64,000 nucleotides of DNA from Sphaerodactylus townsendi (Eukaryota): NCBI RefSeq assembly GCF_021028975.2, contig NC_059437.1:31930001-31994000 (forward strand), given 5' to 3'. The notes below the pieces were generated by a model that worked only from the letters and a program-made list of their open reading frames with translations, was not told the origin of the DNA and searched no databases. Shown here one piece after another: positions 3,887 through 62,869 of the stretch. Made by a program: the position numbers and the translations under genes. How positions within the stretch are numbered: position 1 is the stretch's first letter; each line of letters opens with the position of its first letter.

Positions 3887-3976
3887 CTAGGAGACCATGT
3901 AGTGAGTAATCGCACGAAGAGCATACAACAGTTCTGCTTGAAGCCTGGCTTCCAGGATGAGAAGGTTCACGTGGAC
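3887..3976 (-). CDS. SESN4: Sestrin exon 9 ([29 protein letters not shown])
   Basis: 90 nt ending in TAG; canonical sestrin C-terminus. Confidence 0.95.
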
Positions 3977-6900
3977 CTGTGAAGGAAAGAGGAGAAGTCT
4001 GAAGCATCCTAACTGTCTGTGAGAATACACACATCTATACACTTGGCATCTTCAGGTATTAGCCCTGCTCTAGGTCTCTCTCCTGCCTCACCCAACTGCA
4101 ATTGAACAATAACTAACTAATAGGAAATAAGAGTCAGGCTGCATCAATTTCTAAAAACCCCTTTAGATGGTGTTACACATTATGTTAGACTTCTGGACTA
4201 AGCTCTGGGAGACACAGGTGCAAATTCCCACCCCACTGCGGAAGATCACTGGGTGACCTTGGAGTAGTCCTTCTCTCTCAGCTTGTCCTAAAATGGAGGA
4301 AGGAAAAACAATTTTGTAACCCTTTCGGGGGAGAGGTTGGTGGAAATAAGGTATAAATAAATAAAATTTCCTCCCACGCTGTACTGTTTTGAAATAAAAC
4401 ATCACATTGAACATTTCAAGGACTATGATCAAATACAGTATTTTGGTTAGGAGAGAGAAAAACTATCCCGCACTTTGCTCCAAAATTCTCAAACCCCAAG
4501 GCACTTGGGGGCCCCTTAGTTCAGGGGGAAAATGGGCTAAAAATATTTTTTAAAAGGAAAAAAAAACCATTCATAGACATCAATTCCCCCCCTCCAGGCC
4601 AAGGTCTTTAAAATAAAGCCAACCTCTTAAGGGAAAAAAACCCCATGAATTAAAGTCTTTGCTAAGCAGAACAGTGAGAGCCACAGAATTCATAGAAGGG
4701 GCGGGGGCGGGGAGGAGGAATTAACATTGCAGAACCAGAGTACAATGGGCATTGAAGTCCAACATGCTTAGCTATTAAAAGCAAAATTGTATGGCCTGTG
4801 AAGGGATGAGTACCACATGCCCAGTTCTCTGAAAGGACCGCTTCTTGTCTACTCCCATTCAAGGAAACAGCGCTGCTTTAATGTTTGGCCAGTTTGGCTT
4901 TCCGCTTCTCCTGGCATTCCCATGCAGAAGACTAACCAACCAGGAGGCATTCTTCAGCTGCTACAACAGAGTTGTCCCCCATCACATATCTGGCATGAGC
5001 TTACTCTCCTCTGCCTCTCACACTCACCCAATCTAATTAGAGTTTCTATTCACTTGGTGTGGCCGCAGTATTCCCCAATAAATACTGAAACATCAGTTCC
5101 TGTTTTAGGAGAGTGATGGTTAATTACTGCTTCTTTCTTTTCAGCCAAAGTAATTGCAGATGAAATTTTGCTCCTTTGATTTACAGCTGCTTCACTCCTT
5201 AGTTCCCAGTTGCTTATAGTAACTGAAGCATTCTTGAATTGAACTTTACCTGCAGTGGCATACCTAGGGGGTTGATACCCAATGTGGCTGTTACATGGGG
5301 GGCTCCTGCCCGCCAGAGGAGGCCAAGCAGCTGCACCACCACTGAGCTGCCAGTCGGCTGGGCGTGATAATGCTGCATTCTCCGGAGTCTCTGCTGCTGC
5401 CAACCAACACCATGCCACACCACATGCTGGCCACAAAAGCAGGCAACGTGTGGCAGCAAGTGAGAAGGCGAGCGCGCCTTGTATGCTGCCTCAGGCAGGG
5501 GCGTACCGCTTATAGGGACATGGAGTAATGACTACACGGGCAGTAGACCTGGACGCAGGTGTCAGCTCTGAGCAGTACACCTGGATGCCGGTGTGAGGTC
5601 CAGGCAGTAGACCTGGATGTTGGGCAGTAGACCTGGGCACCTGTGGAGGGGGTGTGTGGAAAATTCAGATCCCCAGGCTCCATTTTTCCTAGATATGCCT
5701 CTGGCCTGGGGCTCAGCCACCTGCCAATGATCAGCGCCACAGAGGATATGTCCTTCTGGTCACTTGAGGGAGATGCTGCCACTGTTGCTGCTGTGTGCAC
5801 ATCCAAGAAGAACCAGTTGACAGGTGGGCAAGAGGGAGGGCCACAGGGTGTGGTGGGGCACCTGGTGACTGTTCCACAAGGAGGTGGCAGGTGGAGGGGT
5901 TGAGTGCAAGCCGGATGTGTGGCCGGGGGCTTTGGGCAGAGAGTAGTAGTTAACATGCTTAGCAGTCACTTTGATTGCAAAGTGAATTAGTATCTCATTC
6001 CCTTATAACCAAGAATTGGTCATTACAAAGTGATTTCTAAGTAAGGACTGGTTCAAGAATGCTACATCCATTTGAAGGGGAACAGGAGTGAGTTAAGCAG
6101 CTGTGAAGAAGAGGAGCAAAATTTTGAAGGGACAGTTTGCAGGGAGAAGCAGAATCTTAGCTGAATAGTACATCTGAATAAACACAGTAAACGGATGTTT
6201 TGTTGGGGGCTTTCACGGGCAGAATCAACAGAGTGTTGTGAGTTTTCCCAAGTGTTCCATGGTCTGGTAGTTTTTGCTTCAGAGAATGCCAGGCATAGAT
6301 GTGTGCAAAATGCTAGGAGCAAAAACTATCAGACCGTGACTACAAGTCTGAAAAACGCACAACATCTACAGTAAACTGAATAAACATGGGCTTTACCGAT
6401 GGGACCTGGAATCGCAGAAAGGAGCATGTGTGCAAAACATTATGGTATTATGCAAATCCATTCTTAATTCTACTTGTAGCATTTTACAGAACAGTAGCGG
6501 CTGAAATGGGCCAAATGGGCCAGGTGTGGATGCCACCTTGCTGGTTGCTGCTACTGTTCCATCACCTTTGCAATGGTCACTTCCATATTCTGGAAACTGC
6601 TGAGAAACAAATTCATGGCACCCACAGTCCTTGCCCACAAGCCTCTGCCCACTGTAAATTGTGCACCCACACACACCTTTTCACTGTGCTTAAACTGTTT
6701 CCAGAAGCGTTCAAACATTTCAGGATTCAGCTTCTCTGGAGAGCAGGTCACAGTTTTTATGTAGAGCTTGAGTATGCGTTCCAGGAGATGGTTCACCTCT
6801 GCGTAGTCATAATCATCGTACCTGCAGAGTGAGTGACAGGAAAATGAAGCCCCTGCTCTTTTTGTAAAAAGGCACACGTGAGCACAGCTGCAAACTAGAC

Positions 6901-9900
6901 TCTGAAATGCTGAGACCCGCACAGGAACACTGCCTGTCTCTTTTTCAACCAAAGCTCAGGCAGCTCGGGAGAAGTGTTCACTTGAGTTCAGCAACAGAGA
7001 AACTTTCATACTTCCTGTCTCTGAAAGGGGCCTGGCTGTCCCTCCCCAGCCAAGGCACACAGACAAGCTCTTATTTCCCCTCCACCCACTGCATGCAGCA
7101 GATGCTAAAATGACTGGGACGGAGATGTGATGAAGGCAAGTTAGCCCATTGCCTAACCCTGCTTGCAGAGTGACTCTTGAGCCAGCCAGTGTTACTATCA
7201 AAACAGCCATTCGCAGCTTTGTAGATCTGAATATCATGGATTGTCAGGGCAATAGTGACAGTCTAGGCTTGTGCCTCTCTAAGACGTAGGTGGTTGTGAG
7301 GGGTCCTTTTCCAATGTTACAAGCTGGCAAGTCATTCAGAGTTTCTAGGGAGCTAAATCTGACTTTCCTCCCTTCCAACTCCACAATCACCCCCAGAAGA
7401 TGGAGAGGCAAGTACCTGATGCCAAACATGCAGTGGATATAGTTCCAAATCCCACGCTTAAACGTGGCATGTTCGCAGCCCTGCCGCTTTGCCATTGCAC
7501 AGCTCTGGAGGCCATCAACCTTCCGGAACTTCTCGTCTAACAGATGCCCAATATCCGAGTACAGCCTGTTCACCAGGGAGAAGCCATGATCTTCCCAGGA
7601 GTAATCCTGCCAAGAATGGAATGCAGGAAGAATGAGGGAGAAGATCAAAGAAGGAGAAGGCCAGGTTGGAACTACAGTGCGTTGAGGAAAGAAAGGTCCA
7701 GGTAAAACCAGATTCATCCCTTATCTCTCCCCCCACCAACTCATACCATGGCCCTCCTAAGCAGGCAATAGTGGCAAAACCCACCTGGACACGGAAAATC
7801 TGTGTCTGATTCTCGTCACGCTGAGCAAAGTCCTGGTATCCAAAGCTGGGGTCTTGAACGTAACAGGAGAGATCTGCAGGGCCCATAATTTCTTCATCAA
7901 AACCTAGAATATACACACAAGCAAAAGGCAGGTTGGAAAGGAAAAAGACACACCACAGCACTTAAGTACGCACCCACAAAGCATTGCTGTTCATGCTCTG
8001 CAGCCTCAAAGAAAGATGCAACAACCCAGGAAACAAAGGTTTTCCTTTTATTCTTTTTTTTTTTACTTTTTCCTACCTCTAAAATGGTGTAAATTAATGT
8101 TAAGGTAGCATGGGGTGCAACGTGTTTGCGGCACCCTCCCTCATTCTAATATTAGACCTTTTTTTTCCCTACAAGAAACACTGGAAATAAAAGGCATTTA
8201 TTTTTTCAATTTCAATAAATACACCAATTAATACCATTTTATATATTCAAGTGCTAAATGATACATTTCAAGTTGTCAAAGCAGAAAAAAATATGTATAG
8301 GTTTGATGAAGTATTCAATATAATCTGATCCACCCCGCCCCTCAAAATTTGAGGAGGTGAAAAAGGCCTTCAAAACTTCCAGAAATGTTTACCTCTCCGG
8401 CCCCAAAGATCTCATGAATTACCTTCTTCCCTCTCTGGCAGCCTCATCTCTTCCCGGGTCTCACTCTCCACCTGCAGCCTGTGAATGCGCCCACGTAGAG
8501 ACTCCAATTCCACACAGGAATCCAGCGACTGGAGAACAGAGAAAGCGGCAAAGCGCCATTCACTAATGAGCCCTGGCTACTGCCCCTGGCCCTGCAGCCC
8601 AAAAGGGCCACTGCATCCCACGACCTGACTCTGCAAAGATTGCCAGTCACGCCGACAGCTCCTCCCCTTCCCAGATCCCTAAAACGTTCCTCAGAAATGA
8701 CAGACCCGCTTGCGGTTGAGATGCAGCAGGTCCTGGCTGTAGCCATTGCCCACTTCACAGAAGCAGAGGCTCCCTGGGATGGTGAGCTTCAGCAAGCCCC
8801 TTCCCTCTGGACACACGTCCTGTTCACAGCCACAGCCAAAAGCAAAGCTGGCCAGCGCGTGGTAGTGAGCGAGCAGCACAACCGCGTGGACTAGTTCTGC
8901 CAGGGACCAGCTCTGTTCGCTGATCTTCAGTAACTTCTAGAAAGAGACACAGAAAAATGCTAGCACCGAGCCCGCAGCCAGACCAGTCCAGCCCCCCCCC
9001 CCCCTAATTCTGGACCTAGATAAAATTCAGATTTTGCAGCAGTGAACACAAAAGCAACTTCCCTGTGCCCACTCCCAGCAAAGGCGCTGGAAAACTGCAC
9101 AGCCAACAGAATATATTAACACAGAATCTAACTCTGTTAACTCATAATTTTACACAGTAGATTTTTGTCTAGATCCTCCATGGCTGCTACACAAAATCTG
9201 CCTAAATTTGGGGCAGTGGTGGTTAACAGCCGCCTTTGAATCTCTCAGATGAACCCACAGCCCAGGCAGCCTAACAGGACAGAGAAAAGGTGTGCTCCCC
9301 CGACTGTCCCCGGTCCCTTCCTGCTTGGCTCGCAGCCATTACCTCTATGTGCTCCTTGCCTACGAGCCATGGCCGATGTGCCAAGATCTTGTTAATCTCG
9401 CTGAGCTTGCGGAGTTTGGGGGGGATGCAATCCAGCCCCCTCAGCCACTGAGGGTCACCGCCAACCCGCAGGAACTGCAGCATGTGTAGATTCACCAGAT
9501 ACTGACACCGGTGCCGGGCAGCTGCCTGCAAGAGAGGGGTGAGACCCACCATGCCCGTGACCAAAGAGGAAAAGTATCCTGAACAAGCCTTTTTGCCCAG
9601 GATAGTCTCATCCACCCTTCCCATGCAGGCCAGCTCAGCGACTTCTTCTCTCTCTTGTGGTGTAGTGGACAGTGTAAGGCTAGGATCCGGGAGACCCAGG
9701 GCTGAACCCCCACTTTGACATGGAAACTTGCTGAGTGACCTTGGGCCAGTCACACACACTTATCTTAGCCTACCTCATAGGGTTGATATAAAGCTAAAGT
9801 GGTGGAGAAGAGAACAGCGTAAGTTGCTTTGGATCCTCATTGGGAAAAGAGGTGGGGTGAAGCACATTTTAAAAGAGGTGAAGCACGTTTTTAATACATA

Positions 9901-12900
9901 TATATATATATATATATAACCACTATTTGAAAGACAGAGGAATCTCTCTCATGGACACCCTCTGAGGTGACTGAAAAGAGAGCTGGCACGCATGACCCAG
10001 TTACTGCCAGACGCCCTCTGTCACCTGATGCCTTGGAATGTTTGCCTACTTAAGAGGTTTGGATTCAGAACGGCTTCCAAAATGGCAACGGTGGACAAGG
10101 GACAACGTTTGCAGCAAGCAAAAGGAAAACAGTATCATGCACATAGCTTGGATGGGGGCGGGGAGCAATAAGCTGCCTGTCCAGTGGATGGCCTGGCTTT
10201 GGTTCAGCTCTTGAAGAGGCTCCTCTCGTGGAAAATCCTGGCACTCACCATGATTGCAATGTAGTGACGGCAGTCAAAGGGCAAGGGGCCATCCATGTGC
10301 AGCAGGTAATGCTGCATCCGGAGGAAACTGTCCAGATAGTGCGGGTGGTAGCCCATCTGCTGTGTGATGGCCTCAAGTCGCCCCCTGCTGGCCAAGGCCT
10401 TCACAAAGAGCAACTGGGGAGCCCGCTCCTTGTCGCTCGCACTCATCTTTGCCACCTGTTGGGGTAGGGAGGAGAAAGAGAGAGAAAGGTTTTTTCTTAC
10501 ACCTTTCTTCCTTGTGTGGAGGAAGTGTCCAAAGGGTAACCAGTTTGTATCAGGGAGGCCTGACCAGAAGGCGAAGTGGCATACAGCAAGCTTGGGGAAC
10601 ACGGAAGGTGGTAGCAAGGAATGGTCTATATCTGAAAGGAACATCTGACATGGGAAAGTGCAGCGAGGAAGCGGGTGTTCCTGCCCTGGGCTATGCGTAT
10701 TCTGCAAAACAGCTGCTCCAGAGACCTTTTGGACCAGCGTGGGCAAAGGGGAAATACCCAGCTAGTTCGTACACGTTGTTTTTAGTTTTGTTTTTAATGT
10801 GCAGTACCACAGTGTTTGTTGTATTAAATCAAGAGTGTCCAACTCTGGTGCCCCAGACGTTTCATGGACTACAATTCCCACCAGTCTCGGCCAGCATGGC
10901 CTATTAGCCATAATGGTAGGGGCTGATGGGAATCTTAGTCCATGAACATCTGGGGCACCAGAGTTGGACATCCCTGCATTAAATCACTTCGTATTGTTTT
11001 TACATCGGCGTTACCCACCTCGGGTCTGGGATGCAGGGAAGAAAGAAAGATAAAGAAATGAATACATGCTGAGCTGGAATCTGCACAAAGTGAATTCAGA
11101 TTCTGCGCTATCAAATCTGGGATTCTAGCATAAGCATTTATTGTCATTGTGCACGCACAACGAAATTTACAGCAGCATTCCTCGATGCACACAATTTCAG
11201 ACTCATACCCCATCCTCACTTTCCCCTTCCTCCACCCATCCCTACACAGCCCCAAACACATCAACACGAAGAATTCAGAATTGGAGTGCTCCCTTTCCCC
11301 TCTGTTATAGGGATATCATTTCTGGTGTGATTCCATCTTCCTGAAAGGATGGGAATCTACATCTACATCCTGTACAAGTTATAAATAACATAGGTATAAT
11401 TTATTGCATATGCAAGTTTGGGAAGAGTTGTTGGAGCAGTATTTTAAAAAGTTCTGCATATAAATGAAACAACTGTGCTCATTTGCATTCAGGCTATGCT
11501 GCTTTCATTAAGGAGAGGAAAAGGGTAACACACCACATTGAACCGTCCCTGCTCAGGAGGAGAAACAAAAACCCCTTGCCAAAAGCCCTGTGCCTCAACC
11601 CCCAGGGTCATGTTCGGGTGCCTGCACCCCACTTCCCCCTCATCATCCTTACAGTTGGTCTTCTCAAGCTCAATGGGGACTGGCTCACATCCACTTGGGA
11701 GATTTCCAGGGCAGGGTCTGAGCCCCATGCGGCACTCCAGGGTCACCTCTAAGCTCCATAACAAGTTTTTCTGCCCCGGCATCAACTGCCTGGAAATGCC
11801 AAAGTCATGCCAAAGGCAGGTGCCACTCTCTGCAGGTCATGGATTGTATGCTCCAGTGGGTACCAGCAGAGGGCAGCTAATAGGGCATTTGACTCTTGCA
11901 CAGACCTAGGCCAGAATAAAAGCCCACCAAGGAGAATTAACTTCCAGCAGCCTGCCCCACTACACTACTGGCATTGACAGAAGCCTGCCATCCTTCCTGG
12001 CCAAGGATAGGAAGTTGCTGGTAATAGCAAGTCGTCTCTTACTTCACTCTGTGGGGGGCCAAAGCACCAGTGCATCTACCTCAACTCCTCCTCCCTCCCC
12101 TTTCTGTAATTTTCCTTATAAGCATTTTCCAAATGATTTCCACACTGAAGGAATCTCTGGCTCATGAAAGCTCCTATTGAAACAAAAGGGGCTATGCGTT
12201 AAGATGCAGCTAGACTTTTGCTTTATTTGCAACATTACAGCCATCCTCATTCACTGGAGATTTTCCACAAGGTCCCTGCACCGCTCCTCAAGTTCCCTTT
12301 TCTTAGCTATCTGCTGGCCCTGGGACTCTCTCTAGGAAAGGGGGAAGATAGTGAAAAATCATTCTATTCCACTTATCAAAGCAGTCGGCCCCCTTCCACT
12401 CCTTAAGACTCCACAGGGCCTTCAGACAACATTCCTGAGCTCTGAACTAACACAAGCTCGGGAAGCCCCAGAGCATGGGCATTCAGCTACTTCAGAAACG
12501 GTCACCTAGTCTCCCAATACCAGCCAGGAGAAATCCCCTGCGATTCCAGCTGTGCAGCAACACCTGCTGTGCCAAGGATTATTGCAGTGCCAAAGTTCTT
12601 GACTAGGAGAGCTGTAGGGAACCTTCCCCCTTCCCCCAATTTCTGCACTGTTTTTCGTCTCCAGAAAACACTCACCACCAACAAACACTGCCTTTTGCAA
12701 TTCTGAGCAACTTTCCTCATTTCAGTATAGTATGCCCTAAAACAAAACATGGGACTGGGAAGTAAATATTCCCTTTTCCTTCTGTTATAGGGATATCAAT
12801 TCTGGTGTGATTCCATCTTCCTGAAAGGATGGGAATCTTCAAAACCAGGTGCAGATTAGAGACAAAGAGTAATAGGACCAAGGTACAGTAAAAGAGATTT

Positions 12901-14434
12901 CACCGAAACATTAGGAAGAACTTCATGATGGTCAGGGCTGTTTGAAAGTGGAATATGCTGCCTCGGAGGGTGGTGGAGGTTTTTAAACAGAGGTTTGATG
13001 GCCATCTATCAAGGATCCTTTGACTATGTCTTCCTGAATGGCAGGGGGGTGGACTTCATGGCCTTGTGGTTTCTTCCAACTCTATGATTCTATGATCCTA
13101 TTCTATGACAAGGTGGGCACTTTCGTTACTTTTACAACTGAGCACTCCAATTCTAAACTGCTTTCTATCCTACACACAGGTAGGATTAAACTTTGCAAAA
13201 AAGACCCACTTATTTGAGGTGTGCTGCCAGGACCATCCCATGCAACTTCTGTGTGCCTCTCTGGATATATGATAGGGAGGGGGGAAACAGGACAAAACCA
13301 TCATCCAACAGGGGAGGGGATTTTCACTCTGGAAAATAATGTTCTAGGGTTCCTAGACTTTGGGGGGCGAGGGCTATAGGCCCTGTCCCAGAAGAAATTT
13401 GGAGCAAAAGAAAAAAAATAAAGAAGAATGAAAAAAGAAAGGGAACAACCACACCCCCTCTTCCATGCAGAAGGGGCAGCCGACCCAATAAAGAGGCGAG
13501 CAAGTCAGCCCGGTGCCGGTCCATTGTCTCCCCGCGCCCCCCGCCCCCGCCAGCTGCAGAAGGCGAACCGCAGCGCCCCCTAGCCGCGCAACCGCCGAAC
13601 CGCAGGAGGAAAGAGAGAAAAACAACTTTGATTGGCAGGGCGGGGAGGAGGAGGAAGAGGCTGGAGCATCCCGCATCCCCGCTGTTGCTGCTGCCTCGGA
13701 CAGGACAAAGGGAGCGCAGGGCGAGCGCGCAGAGGCAGCGTTCCGGAGCCGGACCGCGCAGCTCTCGCAGCAGGGGCGCGTGCACGCACCCCGACTGCAC
13801 CCCCAAAGTTTCCCTCAGGGCCGGTTTAGCTACTGCAGCCCCCCCGCCCCTGCAGCTTCCCTGGAGCAGCAAAGGGAAGGAGCCTTTCAGCAAACCCCCC
13901 CGCCCCCCGGGATACAAAACCCACCTTCTGTTCACCCAAGAATATGGACAGGGAGCACCAGGTATTACTGCAGGACTTGCAAGCGGTTATGCTGGCGCGG
14001 GGGGGGGGGGGGGAGCCTTAGCAGGACTGGAGAAGCGAAGGGGGCGTGCTGCTAGACCCGATGCCTGTTCAGGGAGAAGCAAGCGCCATGCAATTAATTC
14101 AGTGGGGTGCAATTAATTCAGTGGGGTGGCTTTTCTTCCGTGCAAAAGCGCAGGGCTACAGACGAAGGAGCCGGGGGGATGGGTTTGAGGAACAGAATAG
14201 ACGTGCTGAAATTTGGGGACGGGGGTAAAAGGAGAGTTTGTCGGTGGTTTCTTACAGCAGCTTTTGCCTGGAAAGAAGCTGGGGTGGGGGGAGGATCGAC
14301 TGAGCCCCTGCCTTGTCCGGGGTCCATTCGTTTTGCTGGCAGCACCCGGTGCTTTCGCCGCCGGTTGGGCTTACCTGCAGCCTCTGGCACTGTTTTCCCC
14401 GGGGGTGCTCCGTGCTCTGGGGGCAGAGGATCAT
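3887..14434 (-). CDS. SESN4: Sestrin-family protein, divergent fourth paralogue (sestrin-4-like / 'sestrin-3-like'); 9 coding exons, 443 aa
   Basis: Exons 14434-14375, 10455-10249, 9525-9343, 8936-8706, 8528-8423, 7903-7785, 7606-7416, 6821-6677, 3976-3887. All GT-AG, phases consistent, total 1332 nt. Contains hallmark sestrin motifs [88 protein letters not shown]. Family call is certain; the paralogue name is inferred from divergence and synteny. Confidence 0.9.
6677..6821 (-). CDS. SESN4: Sestrin exon 8 (YDDYDY...FKHSEK)
   Basis: 145 nt, DD motif. Confidence 0.95.
7416..7606 (-). CDS. SESN4: Sestrin exon 7 ([11 protein letters not shown]...HCMFGIR)
   Basis: 191 nt, AG/GT bounded. Confidence 0.95.
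7785..7903 (-). CDS. SESN4: Sestrin exon 6 ([26 protein letters not shown]...FRVQ)
   Basis: 119 nt, DP.FGY.DF motif. Confidence 0.93.
8423..8528 (-). CDS. SESN4: Sestrin exon 5 ([23 protein letters not shown]...)
   Basis: 106 nt, AG/GT bounded, linker-helix similarity, phase 0->1. Confidence 0.85.
8706..8936 (-). CDS. SESN4: Sestrin exon 4 ([15 protein letters not shown]...LNRKR)
   Basis: 231 nt, [15 protein letters not shown] motif. Confidence 0.93.
9343..9525 (-). CDS. SESN4: Sestrin exon 3 (AAARHRC...KEHIE)
   Basis: 183 nt, carries the C-x-Y-x4-H redox motif and LAHRPWL. Confidence 0.95.
9899..9918. repeat. (TA)n microsatellite
   Basis: About 10 units. Confidence 0.9.
10249..10455 (-). 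CDS. SESN4: Sestrin exon 2 ([10 protein letters not shown]...RHYIAIM)
   Basis: AG/GT bounded, 207 nt, MDGPLP motif. Confidence 0.93.
10830..10976. mobile_element. Palindromic hAT MITE (147 bp)
   Basis: Self-complementary; 8-bp TSD TATTAAAT/CATTAAAT. Confidence 0.85.
12860..13108 (+). mobile_element. Older CR1 3' fragment
   Basis: CR1-like 3'UTR ending TTCCAACTCTATGATTCTATGA. Confidence 0.8.
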
Positions 14435-14870
14435 TTTCACCAGCCTGCCGGGTTACCCCCCTCCCCCTTCAGTACATAGACAGCAGGACCGACTACCGGC
14501 CTCGGAGCTGCGACTAACCGGCGAAGCTCGCAAGTCCGGACAGCCCAGCCAGAGTCAAGCCGTCAGGGGGCGTGGTACCTTCGCGCGACCAGCCAACCAC
14601 TTCAAAGGGGCGGGGACGGGGGAGGCTCCCGACCAATCAAGGGCGAGGGGCCGGGCTCATGGAGGCTTGCGGCAGGCGGGTTGCAAGACCACGTGGGGCC
14701 GAGCGGAAAGTTACCTGCCTGTCAACGGGAGAAAGGTCCGCCCTTTTCAAGAGAAAGGGGTGGACCGAAAGGTCCAGCGTGGTGTCCCTTGACAGCTCTT
14801 AAAGGAGCCGTGTCCTATTTTTTAAAAAGTATTTAGTTTTTATCCGGGAAGCGGGTCGTCAATTTCTGAC
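13480..14870. promoter_or_regulatory. CpG island / promoter and 5' region of the sestrin gene
   Basis: High GC/CpG density around exon 1; GC boxes (GGGGCGGGG ~14607), CCAAT (~14633), E-box CACGTG (~14690), Ets-like GCGGAA (~14703). Confidence 0.75.
14375..14434 (-). CDS. SESN4: Sestrin coding exon 1 ([20 protein letters not shown])
   Basis: ATG in CpG island, 60 nt, CAG|GTAAGC donor, phase 0 fits exon 2. Confidence 0.75.
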
Positions 14871-17226
14871 GAGTGTTTGGTTCCTGTTGAATAAAAATGT
14901 GCATCAGATCTCGGCCTCCAAAAAAGAAGGCCAGGTTGTAATAACCAAAACACCTCCCCTCGTTCAGCAAGAGGTGTTTTGGTTATTTTATATGTCCCTG
15001 TTTATGTGTTATGCATGTGATACATGCTGTTGTTTTTGATTACAGCATATATTACTGTAATTGTATATGATGCATTCAAAAAAAGCCAAAATATTGGTGT
15101 TAACCTGAGCATTTTAGTAGAAGATACTAAATTCATTTGGGGAGGTATTTGCCTCCCTTTCCAGGATCCTATCACCAGCAGCAAAATAGAGTGATAGTTA
15201 CTTTAACCTCCCCCATTTCTCTCTGTGCTTATAGCCCTTAAAACATTCAATTGTGAGGGAAAGAATAATGCAAGACTTTCAAAAGACAATTCCAATGTCA
15301 GAGCCCAAACCTCACCTGGAAGCTTAGTTTCTAAGTACAAATCCACCTGGACTGCCTAGTCTAGGATGAAAGCACTCTACAAGTGCACAAAGGCTCTGAC
15401 ACTCAATTCAGGCTTTGCTTCTGGATCTGGGAAGTGCCTTTAATATTCTCTGGCACTTACAATCCTTGCCCATAGGGAGTCCTCCTCACCTGCTCACCCA
15501 TTTTGAAGTAAAGACAGCAGCAAACAAGCTTTGATTTTCTCCTGGAATTACACTGAGGAAGGTACAGAACTATAGCTTGTTATAACATGACAAAAATCCT
15601 TTACATGAATTATTACAAAATGCTATTTATATAATTGTAGAGCCAGCAGATAAGGCAGGTGCAATTTGCATAATCTCCTTTGTTCTTTGTAAGTAAACGT
15701 TTAAACTACTAGGTGGCAATACACTATGTACCCTCTGTCTTAATCACTCATGCAAAAGATTATGTTTGCATCAGACTACATGCTGCTAAAAATATTAAAA
15801 GCAACATTTTTTTAAAATACACTGAACTTAATGGCAATATGTCCCTGACCACTAAAATCTGATTTGAAGACATCTGGCAACTGGGGCAGACGTAATCCTG
15901 ATTCAAATCGTGGTGCAGTGCAGTGCACTAAACTTACCCATAGCGACTGACAGCTCTACTGATGTGGACGGACTGAGGATTTCTTAACCCAGCAGCCATT
16001 GCAGCAATGCCTTGTTTGAGCCCATTAGTCTTCTCTCTACCTTCCTGTGTGTTTTTGGGGATGTCCCACAGCATTTGAGCCAGTTTCAAACTGGATAGGA
16101 GCTTGCCTGGGAGTGTTGTCTGCCGCCATGCACAACTGTACCATGTTTGCAGCATGAACCTGTAGTCATTAAAGTTTTTTTTCTAAAGAAGGAAAATAAG
16201 GGCCCTATTAAAAAGCAGAACAAACAGATCCCTACCCCTTTGCCCCTGTGGAATGACGACCCAATTTTAAAATTCATAACATTGTAGTATGCAAAGAAAA
16301 TCCAGCATAAAAGTGGAAATGCAGACTGTCAATCCCATTACGTGGCCCCACTACATCATTTATCTTGTTGCATCATCAGATAACCAACCATGCTAAGGCA
16401 GGGTTCCTGTAAATTACACAGACATATCTAAACATGCAGAAAAGCTCTGCATAACCTGAAAGCTTGCATCCAATATTTTAAAATGCCCAGAATCTTACAA
16501 TCATCCCATGTATGTTGTTTTCTCTTTCTGTGAAAACCAAGATAGAGGGTCCTGACTTAATGCTACTGTATCTCTTAGAGCTTAATTCTAATTTTAACTG
16601 GCCTCTCATATTCACAGAGTCTGATCTCAATATTCCTTTCAGGGCACCACAAATTGATACCGCTGCCTGATCTACTACAGCAAGGAAATCACCAACAGCA
16701 TTCCTGCTTTTGCTGCATTCTAATCCTTTATGTTGTTTGCTGTCCCCCCTGCCTGACATCTAAGGCACTGGAAATCCAAGCCCTCATCACTTACACTTTT
16801 CTTATGATGACCCAGCAAATGCCACTAGATTCCCCTGACTTTTTTTCCAAAGAGGAAGGGCTACCAAACAACCAGCTCAGAGGGTGTGCATCAAAGGGAG
16901 GAAGGAATGCACAAGTCTGCACAGGCCTTGCAACTGCCCATCAATGCTCCCCCCACCCCCCACCCCCCCACACATAACAGTGCTGTTTGCTGAGAGCTTC
17001 TTTTCACCATGTTCTGGCAAATCCACTTTCTGCTGCAGCTTCCCTTCAGAGCTTCCAATCAGAAGCCTCCCTGGTGACATCAGCTTTAAAAACAGAAGGG
17101 CTCCAGCTCTGAATGCAAAATGGGTTCAATAGATAAGGCAGCTGCAATCCACTCTCCGCTCCAAAGTGCTTTTTTTCCCAGCATCCCAAGAAAGACAGGA
17201 GGCCTGAACACTCTTGTAGCCAAGTG

Positions 17227-17329: not shown

Positions 17330-26232
<8,903 letters not shown>

Positions 26233-28694: not shown

Positions 28695-28880
28695 CTATTC
28701 AACGTCAATCTTGAGGACAGAGTCCGTGGAGACTGCAGGCACCTCTCCGGCTCTGCCCAGGATGTCATTGCCCAGGGGCAAATATCCTCCACCAGGAACC
28801 AATTCTGTGACATGGCAGATGCTTTCACGGTAGCTAGACTTGAAGCTCTCCACAGCATCCTTGGGGACTCCAGCCCATTC
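28695..28880 (-). CDS. IL2RG: IL2RG exon 8 (EWAGVPKDAVESFK...KIDVE*)
   Basis: 186 nt, W.GV.K...ES and C.V.E motifs, TAG stop. Confidence 0.92.
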   Translation of the reverse strand, partial: EWAGVPKDAVESFKSSYRESICHVTELVPGGGYLPLGNDILGRAGEVPAVSTDSVLKIDVE

Positions 28881-31800
28881 CTGGGAACAGAAATGGCATA
28901 TTGAGAAGAACACGCCTCTCCTTACCCCCTACGGATCCCCCAAGGATCCGGATCCCCCAAGGATCCGTATTGGGACCAGTGCTCTTTAACTTATTCATAA
29001 ATGACCTGGAAGTAGGGGTGGGTAGTGTGGTGGCCAAGTTTGCAGATGATACCAAATTATGTAGGGTGGTGAGAACCACAAAGGATTGCGAAGAGCTCCA
29101 AGCGGACCTTGATAAATTAGGTGAGTGGGCTCAGAAATGGCAAATGCAGTTCAATGTAGCAAAATGTAAAGTGATGCACATAGGGGCAAAAAATCCAAAC
29201 TTCACATACACGCTACAGGGGTCAGTGCTATGGTCTGAATAGAGGAAGAGAGGGATTTGAAGCGTCTTAGTTGATAGTTCCATGGGAATGTCAACTCAAT
29301 GCATGGCAGCTGTGAAAAAGGCAAACTCTATGCTGGGGATAATTAGGAAAGGAGTTGATAATAAAACTGCAAAGATTGTCTTGCCCTTATAAAAAGCAGT
29401 GGTGCGACCGCACTTGGAGTACTGTGTTCAGTTCTGGTCGCCACATCTCAAAAAGGATATCGAAGAGATAGAAAAAGTGCAGAGAAGGGCAACGAGGATG
29501 ATTGATGGATTGGAGCACCTTCCTTATGAGGAGAGGCTACAGCATTTGGGACTCTTTAGTTTGGAGAGGAGACGTCTGAGGGGGAATATGATTGAAGTCT
29601 ATAAAATTATGCATGGGGTAGAAAATGTTGACAGAGAGAAATTTTTCTCTCTTTATCACAATACTAGAACCAGGGGGCATACATTGAAAATGCTGGGGGG
29701 AAGAATTAGGACTAATAAAAGGAAACACGTGTGATTGGTGTTTAGAATATGCTGCCATAGGAGGTGGTGATGGCCACTAACCTGGATAGCTTTAAAAAGG
29801 GCTTGGACAGATTTATGGAGGAGAAGTCAATCTATGGCTACCAATCTTGATCCTCCTTGATCTCAGATTGCATATGCCTTAGCAGACCAGGTGCTCAGGA
29901 GCAGCAGCAGCAGAAGGCCATTGCTTTCACATCCTGCATGTGAGCTCCCAAAGGCACCTGGTGGGCCACTGCGAGTAGCAGAATGCTGGACTAGATGGAC
30001 TCTGGTCTGATCCAGCAGGCTAGTTCTTATGTTCTTATGTTCTTAAGGTATCCCCACCTCACTCTCCTGGAAGTTTCCTGGTTCTATCTGTTCTGTGGAC
30101 TGGCTGATTTTTCCCCTACATGCTGGTTCTTCTTTTCTTTTTGCCTTTTGTCCAGTTGCTCAGATGATGTGTGACACAGAATCCTGCTCATGATAATATG
30201 GAGACCCAGGGCCTAACCAGATGGGATGCTGGGAATTCTGTGGCTGGCGCTCCCCAAGCAGAGTTGCCAACCTACAGATAGGGCCTAGAGAATTTTCCTG
30301 GAATTACAACTGACCTTTCAAGAAAATAGCAGCTTTGGAGGCTGGACTCTGTGGCATCACATCCCTCCTGAGGACTCCACCATCCCCAGGGTCCACCCTA
30401 AAATCTCTGTGCATTTCCCAACCAGAGTTGACAACCCTATCCCCAAGCATACTTTCTTTGTAAACTCAGTTCAAGGCTATGGCTCAGAACAAGGGGCTTA
30501 ATCCTTCCCCAACACACACAAGCACACAGTGCTGCCTTGACACCCATGGTCAATCCGAGCATCACACCAACAGAATTCTCTTTGAAACTTGTTCTGAATC
30601 GTTCTTAAGCAAGGCATGCTCTGACCTAGATGACCCACATTGACCCGAACTCGTCAGATCTTGGAAACTTAGTAGGCCCAGCTACGGTTAACACTTGGAC
30701 AGGGTATCACTAAGGAAATCCAGGATCTCTATGGAGAGGTAGGTAATGGCAGAGTCAACTATAGTTTGGCAGCACTTTACCACCGCCTACATAGGGAACA
30801 ATTCTCTACTTTTGGACATGATACCATCAGAGGTTCTTACTGAAAAATTGCCCTGGTAGGCTGTGAAGAGCTCTTCAAATTTGTGGCTGGGATTGGGGAT
30901 TCTGGGCATCAGGACCACCCATACCCTGTAAGAAGAGAAAGTGGGTTAAGGGTGGCAAAGCTGCAGGGTTTGCACTGTAGAGCTTGCAAGGGCTTATCAA
31001 CCTCCCTGTGAAAAGACCTCATCCTGCATACAGAGGCTAATGGAAGCATGATTCCCGAGTGATTATTCACAGAGAAACTATATTACTGATACATCTAGAG
31101 AATCATTTGTTAGAGCAAATTCACAAAAACCAGTTCTATCCATTTATCAAACAGTAATTTGCATTTTTGTCACAGGGTCAGATTAGTTTCCAGTCCATGA
31201 TGGGATGCATATGGAAACAGCTACCTCTTCACTTATGAAAAATCATCTTGGTTGAGTGGCAGAGCAGATGCACATCTCATGTGCTTGGGTCCCAATGGAG
31301 TTCCTGGCCTATCAGGGCCCAGTTTTTGGTCTTGTGGTCAGCCTTTGATCTGCCTCAGGACAACCCAATCCTCTACTGTTCATTCTCCTTAATACCTTTC
31401 CATTTCTTTATATGGATTTTCAAATTACCTTTGGAATTGTCCTCTTGAATGAAAATCTAAACTGAGCATCTTCCATTTGTACTATCTCTATGCACATGGT
31501 TCTTGGCAGCCATTTCCTACAGGTAAATGTCTGTGAAATTCTAGACAATTTTAATTTGTGCTGTTACATATATAAAATAGCATTTTATTACACTGTTCTC
31601 TAATCCTGTGATCCTGCTTTATTGTACATGCTGTGTTTAGTACATCCCTGTGTAGGTTCATAATCCAGTATCGCTGTGTTGATTTATTGCATATAACATT
31701 CTGTGTTCTATGTAATCCACTTTGAGTCTCAGGAAGAATAGTGGACTATAAATGAACAAATAAATATATCAGTCAGGCCTGTCCTGGACATTTTAAAATC

Positions 31801-34800
31801 TTAGTCCTAGCAGTTCCATCCTGGAACATCACCTGCCCCGGATCTGGTCAGTTTCATTCACTCACCTCTCCATACGCATCAGGATGAAGATGAGCAGGAG
31901 CAGGAGCAAAAGGGAGACAAATGGGATCAGAACATTCTGGATCCAGAACCACATGGACTTAACCTCTTCTTCAGGGCCTGCAAAGGACAGCCACCCAGAG
32001 ATTATTCGAAACAGGGCGAGCCTCACCTGGGGATTTCTGTCTTTTGCAATCTCTGAAAGGATGCTGGCTGTACCAGAGTCTGTGATGTTTCTGTACTCTA
32101 CCTTGCTCTATACCAAATAAATATAAAAGAACAGTAGCCACGGGGTTGCACTCCTGAAACTCCCATCTAAATATTTGCAGCAGGGCTCCTCACTGATTAA
32201 TTCTGGTCCCACCAGCTCAACAGCATAAAAATCTTTTTAATTCACCAGTTCAATTAATGATGCTGAAAACACTGGCACAGGCTAGCCATATAACAAAATT
32301 TCTGGGGAAAACCCTGCTTAGAGTGAAAGCCATGAGGTCCCACTATGGCCTAGTCCAGCAGAGCCCTTTGGCTACTTACAGCATAGAAGCTGGTGCTTCC
32401 ATCGCCAGCTTCTATGCCTGAAATATGATGACAGCTTGCTGTTTTTCTTTTTGCAGTTTCTGAGAAAGACATCCTTTGCCCGCAAACAATAAACAAACAG
32501 GGATCTATCATTCAGGGACTCAGAGATGGATCGTAAAGTTGCACACTCTGCATAGCCCCAGCAGGTGGAGATGGTTCTATCAGACAAGTCATTCAGAGTA
32601 CATGCACCGGGAAGTTCCATGGAGGCAACTCTGCTTAGTATTTGACACATAGCTAAGCCAGGGTAAAGGAAATGCTGACAGTGACACACGCATTACTCTC
32701 TGGGGTAGAACTCTCCTTCCCATCATTCTGCAAAGGAGTGGAAGTGTGCAATCACAATAAAAACCTAGATTAAAAATATTATCAGCAGGCTGCTACCGTT
32801 TGTGGGGTTTTTTGCAACCAGCTCCTACCAAAGGAAGGTTGTTTGGCATTATCAGAATGTGTCAAAACCACATGAGAAAAAAGCAGCACGAAAAGCAGTC
32901 CTTCGTGCAAAGGTCATCACATTTCCTCCCGCAAAGGCCCTTTTTTGCTGAGCCTCCCCATCCCGGCAGCCTCTCTCGCTGTCTCCTCCACCCCTGGCCT
33001 GCATGCTTTGTTCTCTCCCTGCCTGGCCTTTCTGCACACAACACTCCCACGTGTTGGAGTGTGCCTCGCTGCACAAGCTCAGTTTCCATCACTGATTTGA
33101 AACAGCCCCAGAGCAGCTAATGCTGTACAGCATCAAGTGCTGAAAGAGTGGCTGCAAGTATAGCAGTAGGGCAAGGCACTGAACACTCCCCAGTAAACCG
33201 TTTGAGAGCAGCAAGTGGCCCTAAGTTCACCTAGCAAATCCTCTTAGTCTGATCTGGGACTGTTTGCCTCGGCCTTAGCAAATCTGTGTGCGCACTGTGA
33301 TAACACTGCATTCCTTACAGTACCAACAAATGTCTCTGAAAATGCAGTCCTATGGTTCTATGCCATCTGGAGAGGATTGGGACAACAACCAAGGACCACA
33401 GACTGGTGCATCTTGGAGATATGTCACTGTATTTTTACAAGAGAGTGGAATGTTACAACAGCATATCTCTGAAATTGGCACAATTCTGCCAACGCAGGGG
33501 CCAGAACTGGGTGAAACCAGGGGGTGATCAGAGGTGCACTAGCACTTAGTATACTAAGCTCTCTACAACCCAAATTCCATCTCTAACTTTAGCTTATTGT
33601 CGTGCTGGGGAAAGCCAAAGTATTCCCACTGAACTCAATAAGTGGGAAAAACAACTGCTCTCTCCGCTGCCTCTTACCCACTTGTACAGCCATTATTGAG
33701 CACTAGATTCTAACTCTGCAGTCAGTCATCATTCATTTATATAACTGGATAAATATTCTAGCCAGGACAGCCACCAGATGAGAAGGTGAGGTGTATGGCA
33801 TACAGCTCTCTTGGGCTCATTCCGCACTTGCAGAATAATGCACTTTCAAACTGCTTTCAGTCCTTTTTGAAGCTGTGCAGAATAGCAAAATCCACTTGCA
33901 AACAGTTGTGAAAGTGGTTTGAAAGTGCATTATTTTGCGTGTGCAGAAGGGGCCTAGGCCTCATGTTATAGAAACTTCAAACCATCAAGAAGAGGCTTTC
34001 CTGTGATAGGAAATTTAACCGAAGAGAATGGATACTTGGCATAAACAGCCAAGGCTCCACCACATTTGGGGAGTTTTAATCCCCTGAATTTTTAAAGAAT
34101 TCAGAGTTTTCTTGGGTCTTTCTTCAGATCAGTAAGCAAGTGCCCCCTCTATCCATCCCTAGCTCCCTTTTATGGATCTATTAATCCACATTCTGCCGGG
34201 TTCAGAATTAGATACGAAGTGTGAAGTGCACTGACTATTAAAAGTGCTAAGTAAAGGGCAAATATTGCTAAGGCTGATATATAACCTCTTTTCCTAGGGT
34301 TGCCAACTTTTACATCAGTCCCTCTAGCTGTCCTTTTAATATCACTTTGATCTGCAGCAAGTTCTAGGTGATGTTATTTGCAACCTTGTCGTGAAAAACT
34401 TCACGTGCCCATTCAAATAAACACGTCTCGCCTCTATTGGAAAGATACTACAGTTCTCTTTAGAGTCTAGACCCATTGGCAACCCTACTCCATGAGATGC
34501 ATACGAACCTCAGTCTGTCTGTGCCTTTTAGAAATCTGGCTAAGAATTATTTACATGAAATCCCCAGGACTCATAGAAATGCAAGTGGGCTCCACTTGGA
34601 CACTTGGAAATGTGCCTGCCCTGCTCCCACCAGAGAGGAGGACAAAACAGATTCTCAACTGCACACATCATTCCACACTGTGCCATCTTACTGTGACATG
34701 CCTTTGAAGATGCCAGAAACAGATGCAGGTGAAACATTGGGAGCTAAAACCACCAGGTCACAGTTCACAGCTCAGAAGACCCACAACAGTCAATTATATA

Positions 34801-37800
34801 TATTTTCTTTGCACTCCATAAAAGACCTTCATACCTTTCCTGGTGATATTTGGCCCCCAAAAGACAGGGCCTGCTGTCAAACTCCAAAGCTCAGTGGTCC
34901 CACATTGAGAGTCTATTTTACTCTTCACATAGAAGGCATAGCGTTTCTCTGGATCCACACTGGGTAAGATGAACTTCATCTCTCCTGTTCGTGAATTCTG
35001 GAAGGCAATATAGAAGAGGTATGGAAACAGTGGTTACCTCTATCAGCCCAGCTGATTAAGCAGTCAGGTGACCTCAGTTCTTTAGAAGGGGAATACCATG
35101 TTATGTCCTGACCTGCTCTTTGACCTTTACTTGCTCTGGTCTGCAGTACATTATGGGTGTTTGAGATAATAATAATGAGATGATGGCAGGTAAGAATATG
35201 AAGGCTTTATGGGGTGTTACAGTTGTAAAAGGCCAAACTATTTCCTGATAAATATGGAGCAGGGAAATGCTAAAGAGAAGCCACAAATACTATATTTGTT
35301 GGGGGACACTGAACGGCAACATTAGAGATGTACTCTTTTTTTTTTTGAAACAACGAAATCACAGAAAAATAACTCCCCAATCTGTGATCTGAAAAGCAAA
35401 ACAAAACACACAACTGGAAATTTGGGCAAAAGTTGAAGAGTATGTAGCATTGACTTGCTGATCAATACCCAACTTAGCTGTGACCTTTCAGCTCGGAAAT
35501 ATCAGATATTTAATTCTGAACTTGGCCTTTGAGTACAAATCAAAACTTCCACATAATGGAGCCAAGCACAGAAAGACAAGAAGTTTCTTCAAACTTGGGA
35601 AAGCCCCCAGATTTGCAGGAAAATCCTCAAACAAATAAAAAAGAAGGTGGGGGGACTCAAAGTCTTGTGAGACTCTTCTGTTGCACCCTGGACAGAAGTA
35701 GCTGGGGGCAGAAAGTGTGCTTCCATTGCAAGTATCCCTCCATCAGCTGGAGGAGGGCTCAAGAAGGAAAGCACATCTGGAACACTGTTTGCTCCAAGCC
35801 AAGTTGCCTGATTAGATGTCTGGAGCTATCTGGAGTAGGGAGGCTTAGAGGAGAACATGGGATGTTCCCTCCCTAGCAAGTATTCACAAGATTCCTGGTG
35901 GTTTTGTGTAGCAGCAGACTCAGCTACAAGAACATAGATGCTTCTGGGAAGTTCAGTTACATTTGAGAATCAGTATCCCTCCAAGATCAAGATTCTGTCA
36001 AACTCCAATTATTAGAGGTTACAGAATAAAACACAAGTGCAGGGAGAGCCCTGTGCCTTTCTGAAAGTTTTCCATATTTTCCCAGGTCACTCTCTATAAC
36101 CTACAGTGGAAAAGCCAAGAACGAACGCTGCCAACTTCAGGTTGGGTGGAGCTTGGGAAGATAAGATTTGGAGAGGCCAGGAACCTTAGCAGGCTATAAT
36201 GGCATAGTCTATCCTCTGAAACAGCCATTTTCTCCAGGGGAGAAATGGAGATCAGTTGTAATTCTCAAAAATCTCCTGGCTCCACCTGGAGACTGACAAC
36301 CCCAGGGTTGGAGGCATTTGTGCTCGCTTCAGACCCAGTGGGTGTTGGTTGCCCAATTAGAAAGCTGCCACCTACAGTAACAATATCATCCCTTCACCAC
36401 CCTGAACTGTTCTCAGCAGGACAAGGAGAAGAGCCAGTACCTTCCGTTCAGTGTCTGTGTTGCTCTCGTACTCCACCATGTGCTCCAGACAGTGTGTGGC
36501 TTTGTATGTTGAGCCCCAAGTCACAAGCAGCTGGTTGTTTCCTAAATTCTGGACGGTGAGGTTAACAGGTGGATTGGGTTTCACTAGAAGAGAAAAAGGT
36601 GGGCTGTCTAGATTCTGAGGTGCTTTTGACCATGCCTTTTGGTATTGCTACTTGGAATTTCTGGGTTTCCCTCCTTGCCACCTAACCCTACTGCAACATA
36701 CATTGCTTTTTCATGGAGCTCTTTCTCCACACTCCCTCCCAAATGGCAGCAGATGTAAAATTACAGTTTCTACATGAGATTATCACACTTCTGCCAGCAT
36801 TCTGAGTTTTCCTCAATTCTGCTGTAGATAGGGTTGCCAACTCTGAGTTGAAAAATTCCTGGAGATTTGGGGATACAGCTTGGGGAGTGCAGAGTTTAGG
36901 AATGGGAGGCACCTCCAGTGGTGGGATTCAAATTATTTATGTAGCCCTCATCTCCTATTAGCTCCCATTGGAAACAATGGGGGATGGGGTCCCCCTTTGG
37001 GGGTCCATATATTTGGACCCCCTCAACCAAACTTCACCAAACCTGGGTGGTATCATCAGGAGACTCTCCTACTGATATCACCCAGGTTTGGTGAAGTTTG
37101 GTTCAGGGGGTCCAAAGTTATGGACCCTCAAAAGTGTATCCCCCATCTCCTATTAGCTCCCATTGGAAACAATGGGGGATGGAGGCACCCCTTTTGGGAG
37201 TCCAAAACTTTGAACCCCCTGAACCAAACCTCACCTAACTTGGGTGGTATCATCAGGAGGGTCTCCTGAAAAATCCCTGAAATTATGGTGCTGCTAGTTT
37301 AAAAACTGCGCCCCCTGCTGGCCAAAAACTGAAAAAACACTAAAATACAAAACACACACAAATGAACCTGAAATTTTTGCGCCTTCCATTGGGGGGCGGG
37401 GGGCGCATGGGGACATAGGGTACCCCATGTTCCCTAGGTAAATACGCCACTGCATAGAAGTGCTGGCAACCCTAACTGAAGCTTAATGAGGAAGGTGCAA
37501 AGTGGACAGAGGGGTGAAAGGAGTTCTTCAGCCAAGGTGCCACTACAGAGAATGCCCTGCTCAACAGGGGCACACACCAGATGAACTCTGAAGACGTAGA
37601 CCTGAATGTTCAGGCACCAGTTGTCCTAGCTTACTGTCCAGTAACATTCCGGGGGGGGGGGTTCTCCCCTCTTTTCCTGCTTTGCACCTGGGAAATCACG
37701 AAGGAAGTGCTATCTTAAACCAAGTAACCATAAGCCTTTGGAGTCTGTACCTATGCTTGCTGTATTTAGCATGGCTATCAACCAGAATCTCCAGTAACAG

Positions 37801-45449: not shown

Positions 45450-62736
<17,287 letters not shown>

Positions 62737-62869
62737 GTGAGTGTGCTTGTCTTTGGGCCTCTCTCTTCCCATGCACTGGTACAGATGATAAGTCACAGCT
62801 GCATCTATGTTGGGCATCTCTGAAAATACGTATTATGTCTCTGGAAGTGAGTGGAGCAAGGGACTATTC

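Follow-up and report, generated by a model that had tools for sequence, protein, structure and literature searches.

Does the common gamma chain locus of a gecko carry a sestrin that mammals do not have and, if so, how much of the leucine-sensing apparatus of its relatives has it kept? The question is raised by a 64,000-nucleotide stretch of the Sphaerodactylus townsendi genome (NC_059437.1, positions 31,930,001 to 31,994,000; hereafter the window), in which an earlier note had recognized a complete, uninterrupted sestrin of 443 amino acids (aa). To our knowledge, mammals have only SESN1-3, and the human order FOXO4-CXorf65-IL2RG-MED12 includes no sestrin. The gene turned out to be as described: it occupies nine exons on the minus strand, its 1332 nucleotides (nt) encode 443 aa plus TAG with no internal stop, and all eight introns have GT-AG ends. 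We have hardly any doubt that it is an intact, spliced gene for a fourth sestrin, SESN4. What is new is that, as read from aligned sequences, the leucine lid has been lost throughout the SESN4 clade while the face that contacts GATOR2 has been kept. The parts of the gene, with residue equivalents in human SESN2 in parentheses, are as follows.

13501..15000, no strand: CpG-rich stretch, promoter and exon 1; CpG observed/expected 0.72, 0.54 and 0.85 in three 500-base bins
14375..14434, minus strand: exon 1 (ATG, 20 aa), from the gene model; 7 reads with a joint across 3919 nt
10249..10455, minus strand: exon 2, with H57 (H86) and D75 (D104)
9343..9525, minus strand: exon 3, with the AhpD-like peroxidase site C96/Y98/H103 (C125/Y127/H132) at 9484-9507
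8706..8936, minus strand: exon 4, with the WSLAEL GATOR2 motif and S161 (S190)
8423..8528, minus strand: exon 5, containing L238 (L261) in linker helix L1; lacks the RFExEK motif of helix L2 that SESN1-3 have
7785..7903, minus strand: exon 6, transducer segment with R300/Q302 (R338/Q340)
7416..7606, minus strand: exon 7, GATOR2 face (E307, L313, L317, D326) and replaced leucine lid
7457..7507, minus strand: replaced lid, Q336-K352, in exon 7, from a gap-free alignment to human SESN2 342-403
6677..6821, minus strand: exon 8, with D368/D369 (D406/D407) at 6812-6817 and W406 (W444)
6680-6682, minus strand: E413 (E451), in exon 8
3887..3976, minus strand: exon 9, coding part with TAG, from the gene model and contig X1
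2655..3886, minus strand: 3′ untranslated region, minimum extent; spliced-contig pieces 2655-3011, 3335-3666 and 3739-3974

All four exons that were scanned (2, 3, 4 and 7) passed the curated cut-off of the PA26 family (PF04636), for which the orthologue P0423 scores 601 bits. P0423 is a 443-aa model from another gecko and shares 94.6% identity with our protein over 443 aa. The WSLAEL, DDYDY, LAHRPW and HSEKVH motifs and the equivalents of C125, Y127 and H132 were all found in the gecko translation. Splicing is documented by four RNA runs from related organisms A and C; since their reads differ from the window, we count them as the relatives' RNA and not as this animal's. Introns 1-7 are spanned by joints of exactly the predicted size, with 7 reads for intron 1, one read plus a contig for intron 2, four reads plus a contig for intron 3, and 7, 18, 7 and 9 reads for introns 4 to 7, at an exon depth of only ~1-3. 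Intron 8 is represented by abutting pieces of a single 2474-base contig, X1, which we can only guess to be RNA. Among the 25 listed exon differences between the gecko and X1, which are part of all differences, 19 are synonymous against 23% expected. The corresponding crude ratio of nonsynonymous to synonymous rates (dN/dS) of 0.09, again from this partial list, points to purifying selection; the earlier note had proposed this check.

Two further exons were considered and rejected. For a small GPSxFIP exon in intron 1 there was neither a motif match nor a tblastn match, and reads join exons 1 and 2 directly; a CxxC-like frame at 13925-13990, tried as an alternative first exon, has no in-frame start codon and no listed joint. 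An Rfam scan of the window plus 20 kb to its left returned no matches. Intron 1 contains a near-identical stretch of ~65 bases twice, at window positions 11286-11360 and 12766-12840. The squamate annotations P0001, P0003 and P0006 include an isoform without exon 3, from which the peroxidase site and LAHRPW are removed in frame; no such isoform was seen among the relatives' reads mapped on the window.

How SESN2 responds to leucine is known from published work. Leucine closes the lid and allows helices L1 and L2 to assemble; it also drives R404 and R338 against R46 of WDR24, leading to release from GATOR2 (PMC12507694). According to the same source, E288A and K291A block leucine-triggered release, E451Q is leucine-blind and binds GATOR2 constitutively, and free apo-SESN2 is unstable, its structure being unsolved. 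Mutation of either T374 or T386 eliminates leucine binding (review PMC11429811), and Y375F abolishes it while GATOR2 binding is unaffected (PMC10938194).

We then compared these positions across 555 stored proteins classed by best match, of which 236 were SESN4, 224 of them at least 250 aa long; counts below refer to rows covering each site, in human SESN2 numbering. In the gap-free alignment of exon 7, T374, Y375, T377, T386, L389 and R390 correspond to Q, S, A, H, F and K. The gecko protein has Q336, S337, A339, H348 and K352 at its lid and thus lacks the TYNT lid, T386 and R390 that mark leucine sensors. T374, Y375, T386 and R390 are each kept in 0/217 SESN4 rows, T377 in 24. T374 together with Y375, on the other hand, is kept in 101/102 SESN1, 21/21 SESN2, 30/30 SESN3 and 14/14 invertebrate-type rows. 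Since 152 of 153 SESN1-3 rows and all 14 invertebrate-type rows retain this pair, the lid is ancestral and its loss derived. L389F is not diagnostic, as F is found in 11/14 invertebrate rows. The helix L2 motif is likewise absent from all 201 SESN4 linkers but present in SESN1 (99/99), SESN2 (15/15) and SESN3 (29/29). In ray-finned fish SESN4 the lid loop is shorter by 3-8 residues. Sharks through birds share the new loop in conserved form, so it is not the product of simple decay; the rows record one event, before the shark-bony fish split.

The replaced loop of squamate SESN4 (window 7478-7507) contains two cysteines, C338 and C346, the second of which is also shared by sharks, lobe-finned fish and tetrapods; the loop may be redox-sensitive. 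Pipefish SESN2 shows another, partial change of the lid: in five rows (P0276, P0487-P0490) T377 is replaced by R and N376 by H.

Next, we asked what had happened to the GATOR2 contacts named in the cryo-EM paper (PMC12507694). SESN4 either retains them or has the residue of SESN3 instead (F349, V195, V352). The retained residues are D406 in 210/210 rows, D407 in 211/211, D364 in 217/218, L351 and L355 in 217/220 each, E345 in 215/221, S190 in 214/222, Q340 in 213/218 and D104 in 215/217. The overall fold seems to be preserved as well. An AlphaFold model of the orthologue P0007, with a mean confidence (pLDDT) of 67, matched human SESN2 (E 4e-25) and then AhpD-like proteins. Target-normalised template-modelling (TM) scores of this model, which is that of an orthologue and not of the gecko protein, against human SESN2 structures are 0.79-0.91, suggesting two AhpD-like helical lobes. 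The modelled conformation of the lid, a short helix, comes from a 27-sequence alignment with linker pLDDT below 50 and was not used as evidence.

With such a face, SESN4 likely binds GATOR2 and inhibits mTORC1. We further propose that it is probably a leucine-insensitive, stress-induced mTORC1 inhibitor that keeps its grip on GATOR2 without a leucine lid. By analogy with SESN2 mutants, it would dock onto WDR24-SEH1L via D368/D369, D326, E307, S161 and L313, and with no lid closure and no helix L2, leucine would be unable to trigger its release. Because the docking face persists without lid or helix L2, SESN4 is predicted to sit on GATOR2 at any leucine level, and its output would then follow its amount. 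That amount may be set by stress transcription through p53, to judge from zebrafish only: after irradiation, zebrafish sesn4 rises with a log2 fold change of 1.5 at 1 h and 2.6 at 3 h, and the rise is absent in p53 mutants (PMC12145846). SESN4 would thus act as a brake governed by transcription, alongside SESN1/2 with their control by leucine. That the zebrafish gene is the same one, as the earlier note had supposed for fish 'sesn4', is borne out by its guide targets given in that paper, three of four of which translate to clear motifs of the SESN4 clade.

Several observations weigh against this proposal. The helix L2 motif is also absent from all four readable invertebrate rows, the linker alignment being poor, and the 217 SESN4 rows include isoforms and many birds and are not independent. 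In SESN3 the lid is intact, yet leucine binding is weak (PMC11429811), so lid sequence alone does not fix the leucine response. Zebrafish sesn4 was targeted in a G0 crispant screen, in which three other genes rescued cell-cycle arrest (PMC12145846). In the gecko, neither p53 sites (16 vs 26 expected) nor FOXO sites (6 vs 4.9 expected) are enriched. Finally, half of the leucine pocket is kept: E451 in 215/215 rows, W444 in 213/216, L373 in 207/217, L261 in 202/208 and H86 in 201/202, the gecko having all four residues of the pocket base (E413, W406, L238 and H57 for E451, W444, L261 and H86). Position 390 is K in 213/217 rows, a residue that might yet hold a carboxylate, and conservation extends to the substitute loop.

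The last of these points raise an outside chance that SESN4 binds GATOR2 but senses another amino acid or metabolite, in a pocket made of E413, K352 and the basic, cysteine-bearing loop as a new lid. Besides the invariant E451 and the nearly invariant K at 390, this would account for W444, L373, L261, H86, R338 and R404 being largely kept and for a replacement loop shared by sharks, coelacanth, lungfish and tetrapods. E451 and W444 may, however, serve the fold, and the helix L2 motif is missing from the same proteins. Moreover, gar, bowfin and teleosts lose 3-8 residues of the loop and have altered F447/H449/S450, which argues against one conserved ligand. A lidless GATOR2 inhibitor is the reading that we prefer.

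Could SESN4 instead be mainly a peroxidase, or a redox or autophagy scaffold, with little role at GATOR2? The peroxidase triad is retained (C125 191/207, Y127 207/207, H132 207/207), and SESN4 is missing the N-terminal GPSxFIP exon, with no true matches and a divergent form in only 4/224 rows, all rays. But in SESN4 of cartilaginous fish a serine takes the place of the catalytic cysteine (16 rows: P0124, P0125 and P0522-P0535), so peroxidase activity cannot be the feature that the whole clade keeps. As the best conserved part is the GATOR2 face, we consider a mainly peroxidatic or scaffolding role unlikely. Less probable again is that SESN4 is one more redundant sestrin of the ordinary kind, with a response to leucine that persists at lower affinity. 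The kept pocket base and the conservative nature of R390K would fit it, as would Drosophila sestrin, which senses leucine at ~100 uM and has other differences (PMC11429811). Against it, T374, Y375 and T386 are all replaced where each single change, even Y375F, abolishes binding in SESN2, and invertebrates keep T374/Y375 in 14/14 rows.

The identification of SESN4 as a separate paralogue rests on both the genome and the trees. A search of the gecko genome gave four sestrin loci from five candidates, and 26 exon matches fell at the same four: SESN1, SESN2 and SESN3 on contigs C1, C6 and C4, and SESN4 on C13. Within 334 kb of C13 there was no second sestrin remnant, the best stray match having E 4.3. 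In a 62-row tree, SESN4 forms a clade of 20 rows with support 100/100. It comprises chimaera, ray, bichir, paddlefish, gar, bowfin, teleosts, coelacanth and lungfish among fishes, and newt, turtle, alligator, birds and squamates among tetrapods. All four sestrin clades stand, with SESN4 again at 100/100, in a 44-row tree of 294 columns, built without the columns of the lid, the linker and the N terminus and without 18 rows that were long, partial or redundant. The outgroups of the trees were insects, a snail and unnamed rows, with no named amphioxus, lamprey or hagfish. Identity of the gecko protein is 80% with chicken P0039 and 72% with coelacanth P0094, against just 50%, 53% and 56% with the SESN1, SESN2 and SESN3 of gecko. 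Nesting within SESN1, SESN2 or SESN3, which the earlier note had named as the outcome that would speak against its view, was not seen. There is next to no chance that SESN4 arose by duplication of SESN3 or SESN1 within reptiles or geckos only, as database names such as 'sestrin-3-like', 'sestrin-1-like' and 'Sestrin 3' might imply, given the identity to coelacanth SESN4, the inclusion of sharks in the clade and the rejection of a tree constraining squamate SESN4 with squamate SESN3 (approximately unbiased test, p 4e-5).

SESN4 has the longest stem of the four sestrins (0.37 vs 0.14-0.16 in the 62-row tree). Its sister paralogue may be SESN3: grouping of the two is not rejected (p 0.24), and a quartet of the genome's own sestrins pairs SESN1+2 against SESN3+4, with sites 9:3:2. 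A matching quartet is obtained for the FOXO genes of this genome, where those on C6 and at 122 Mb of C1 are set against those on C13 and at 171 Mb of C1 with 95% bootstrap, although the informative sites are close (17:14:11). The three FOXO genes other than that on C13 are presumably FOXO1, 3 and 6. Three of the four sestrins lie on the same contig as their matching FOXO gene (at 185 kb, about 200 kb and 3.7 Mb), whereas SESN3 does not. The age of the clade, equal to that of jawed vertebrates, and the matching FOXO quartet suggest that a FOXO-sestrin pair was quadrupled in the vertebrate whole-genome duplications and that SESN4 arose as part of it. The branch of lacertid SESN4 (P0012, Podarcis) is long, at 0.26 in the 62-row and 0.18 in the 44-row tree. 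The SESN4 block belongs to the Z chromosome in lacertids and to the X chromosome in therian mammals.

How widespread is SESN4, and under what names? Among the best 120 of 227 and of 1434 matches to SESN4 queries, SESN4 rows come to an end and are followed by SESN3 of mammals, frogs and caecilians. Among the named proteins of three protein searches, SESN4 was found in none of 11 mammals, 18 frogs and 2 caecilians; a fast-evolving copy could rank lower, as those of teleosts do, and the searches covered proteins and not genomes. Salamanders with SESN4 are among the matches. Established knowledge and the absence from protein matches suggest that mammals lost SESN4, perhaps because the weakly leucine-binding SESN3 covers its role, and the same matches hint at possible separate losses in amphibians, including frogs. 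The paralogue itself is not new, as databases already call it 'Sestrin 4' in some fishes (in UniRef, proteins of coelacanth, elephant shark, gar and reedfish). Tetrapod copies are listed as sestrin-3-like, as the earlier note had anticipated, but also as sestrin-1-like, Sestrin 3 or SESN3, and chicken XP_420203.4 is labelled 'sestrin-3'. A turkey 'sestrin-3-like' gene, LOC104912103, which is described as cold-induced, may or may not be SESN4.

In the literature searched, which leaves most subscription papers outside, sesn4 occurs only as the p53-induced zebrafish gene, nothing was found on a sestrin lost in mammals, and the only leucine-insensitive sestrin is SESN3. Mention of a fourth sestrin turned up in a single unrelated item, and to judge by titles no paper dealt with the synteny of this gene in vertebrates. 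A 2024 review (PMC11429811) states that vertebrates have three sestrins and reports a non-conserved lid in 7-8% of rows, some of which may be SESN4; the searched and possibly incomplete text of its supplement does not name SESN4. The passages searched of a lungfish preprint name only 'Sestrin 1/3'. On balance, we lean towards a broader view as well: after duplication, one sestrin may have swapped its lid for a conserved loop and become either a locked GATOR2 inhibitor or a sensor of another nutrient or of redox state. It would be an mTORC1 input of fish, salamanders, reptiles and birds, discarded by mammals and perhaps frogs and hidden under the name sestrin-3.

The neighbours of SESN4 were identified within the window and, to its left, by a coding-bias scan followed by a Pfam or PDB check.

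22984..25562 of the window, minus strand: CXorf65-type gene, two exons matching PF15874
18922-19047 of the window: probable further CXorf65 exon, no Pfam match
28773..39923 of the window, minus strand: IL2RG (common gamma chain) exons
45991..64000 of the window, plus strand: MED12, start codon at 45991, continuing past the window end
31.713 Mb of the contig, plus strand: GDPD gene
31.727-31.740 Mb of the contig, minus strand: FOXO gene (FOXO4); best PDB match AFX (FOXO4), 110.5 bits vs 107 for FOXO1
left of the window, between the FOXO gene and the sestrin, plus strand: SNX12
left of the window: amino-acid permease gene
left of the window, minus strand: DLG gene, best per-length match SAP102/DLG3

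The earlier note had placed the sestrin beside CXorf65-IL2RG, and CXorf65, IL2RG and MED12 indeed follow in order on its right. It had also expected FOXO4 on the left; linkage was found, with FOXO4 ~194 kb left of the SESN4 stop codon and on the same strand, but direct adjacency was not, likely because of an inversion. We take the permease gene to be SLC7A3, the DLG gene to be DLG3, and the human order to be GDPD2, DLG3, TEX11, SLC7A3, SNX12, FOXO4, CXorf65. Relative to this order, the DLG3-FOXO4 block (G000:C13:31,725,000-31,930,000) is likely inverted; the region left of the sestrin contains no N. Undoing the inversion would bring FOXO4 tail-to-tail with the sestrin, like the FOXO gene and SESN1 on C1, which lie tail-to-tail 185 kb apart. 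The strand of the permease gene is opposite to that predicted by one simple DLG3-FOXO4 inversion. An exon of a paralogue of CBP20 (nuclear cap-binding protein 2), perhaps NCBP2L, lies between the permease gene and DLG3 (L016:5232-5348, minus strand). CpG islands with long open frames occur at L011:1905-2666 and L028:7400-8300, with no Pfam match over cut-off and, for L028, no Rfam match; the latter island sits close to the presumed breakpoint, ~6 kb past the stop codon of SESN4.

What does a lidless sestrin mean more generally? Since a fourth sestrin present in most vertebrate lineages is often labelled 'sestrin-3', expression and comparative data on non-mammalian SESN3 may mix two genes with different predicted nutrient control. 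SESN4 would also offer a natural, stable, leucine-free sestrin, and SESN4 or a lid chimera would make the lid-release mechanism directly testable, which is useful because free apo-SESN2 is unstable and unsolved (PMC12507694). It is relevant, moreover, to how mTORC1 is controlled in poultry, in farmed fish and in animals that fast or estivate.

Among known systems, the closest are zebrafish sesn4 (si:zfos-80g12.1) and the UniRef 'Sestrin 4' proteins of fishes, which belong to the same clade and have the same replaced lid, although ray-finned fishes have it shortened where tetrapods have a full-length substituted loop, and tetrapod copies, unlike those of fishes, do not bear the name. Fused gene models joining SESN4 to CXorf65 (goose P0032, sturgeon P0541) or to IL2RG (swallow P0068, kiwi P0059) indicate that its neighbours are the same in birds and sturgeon as in the gecko. 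Human SESN2 (PDB 5DJ4, 9DX1, 9LWF), a leucine sensor upstream of mTORC1, shares with SESN4 the fold, exon phases, GATOR2 contacts and peroxidase triad; in SESN4, T374, Y375, T377, T386 and R390 are replaced and the helix L2 motif and GPSxFIP exon absent. Mammalian SESN3 has F349, V195 and V352 in common with SESN4 and a similar leucine-independent output is predicted, but it keeps the TYNT lid (30/30) and helix L2 (29/29), of which SESN4 has neither, and resides at a different locus. Engineered SESN2 E451Q and Y375F are leucine-blind, and the constitutive GATOR2 binding of such mutants is the behaviour predicted for SESN4. In contrast to these mutants, SESN4 is natural and under purifying selection. 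Its lid loss is over 400 million years old.

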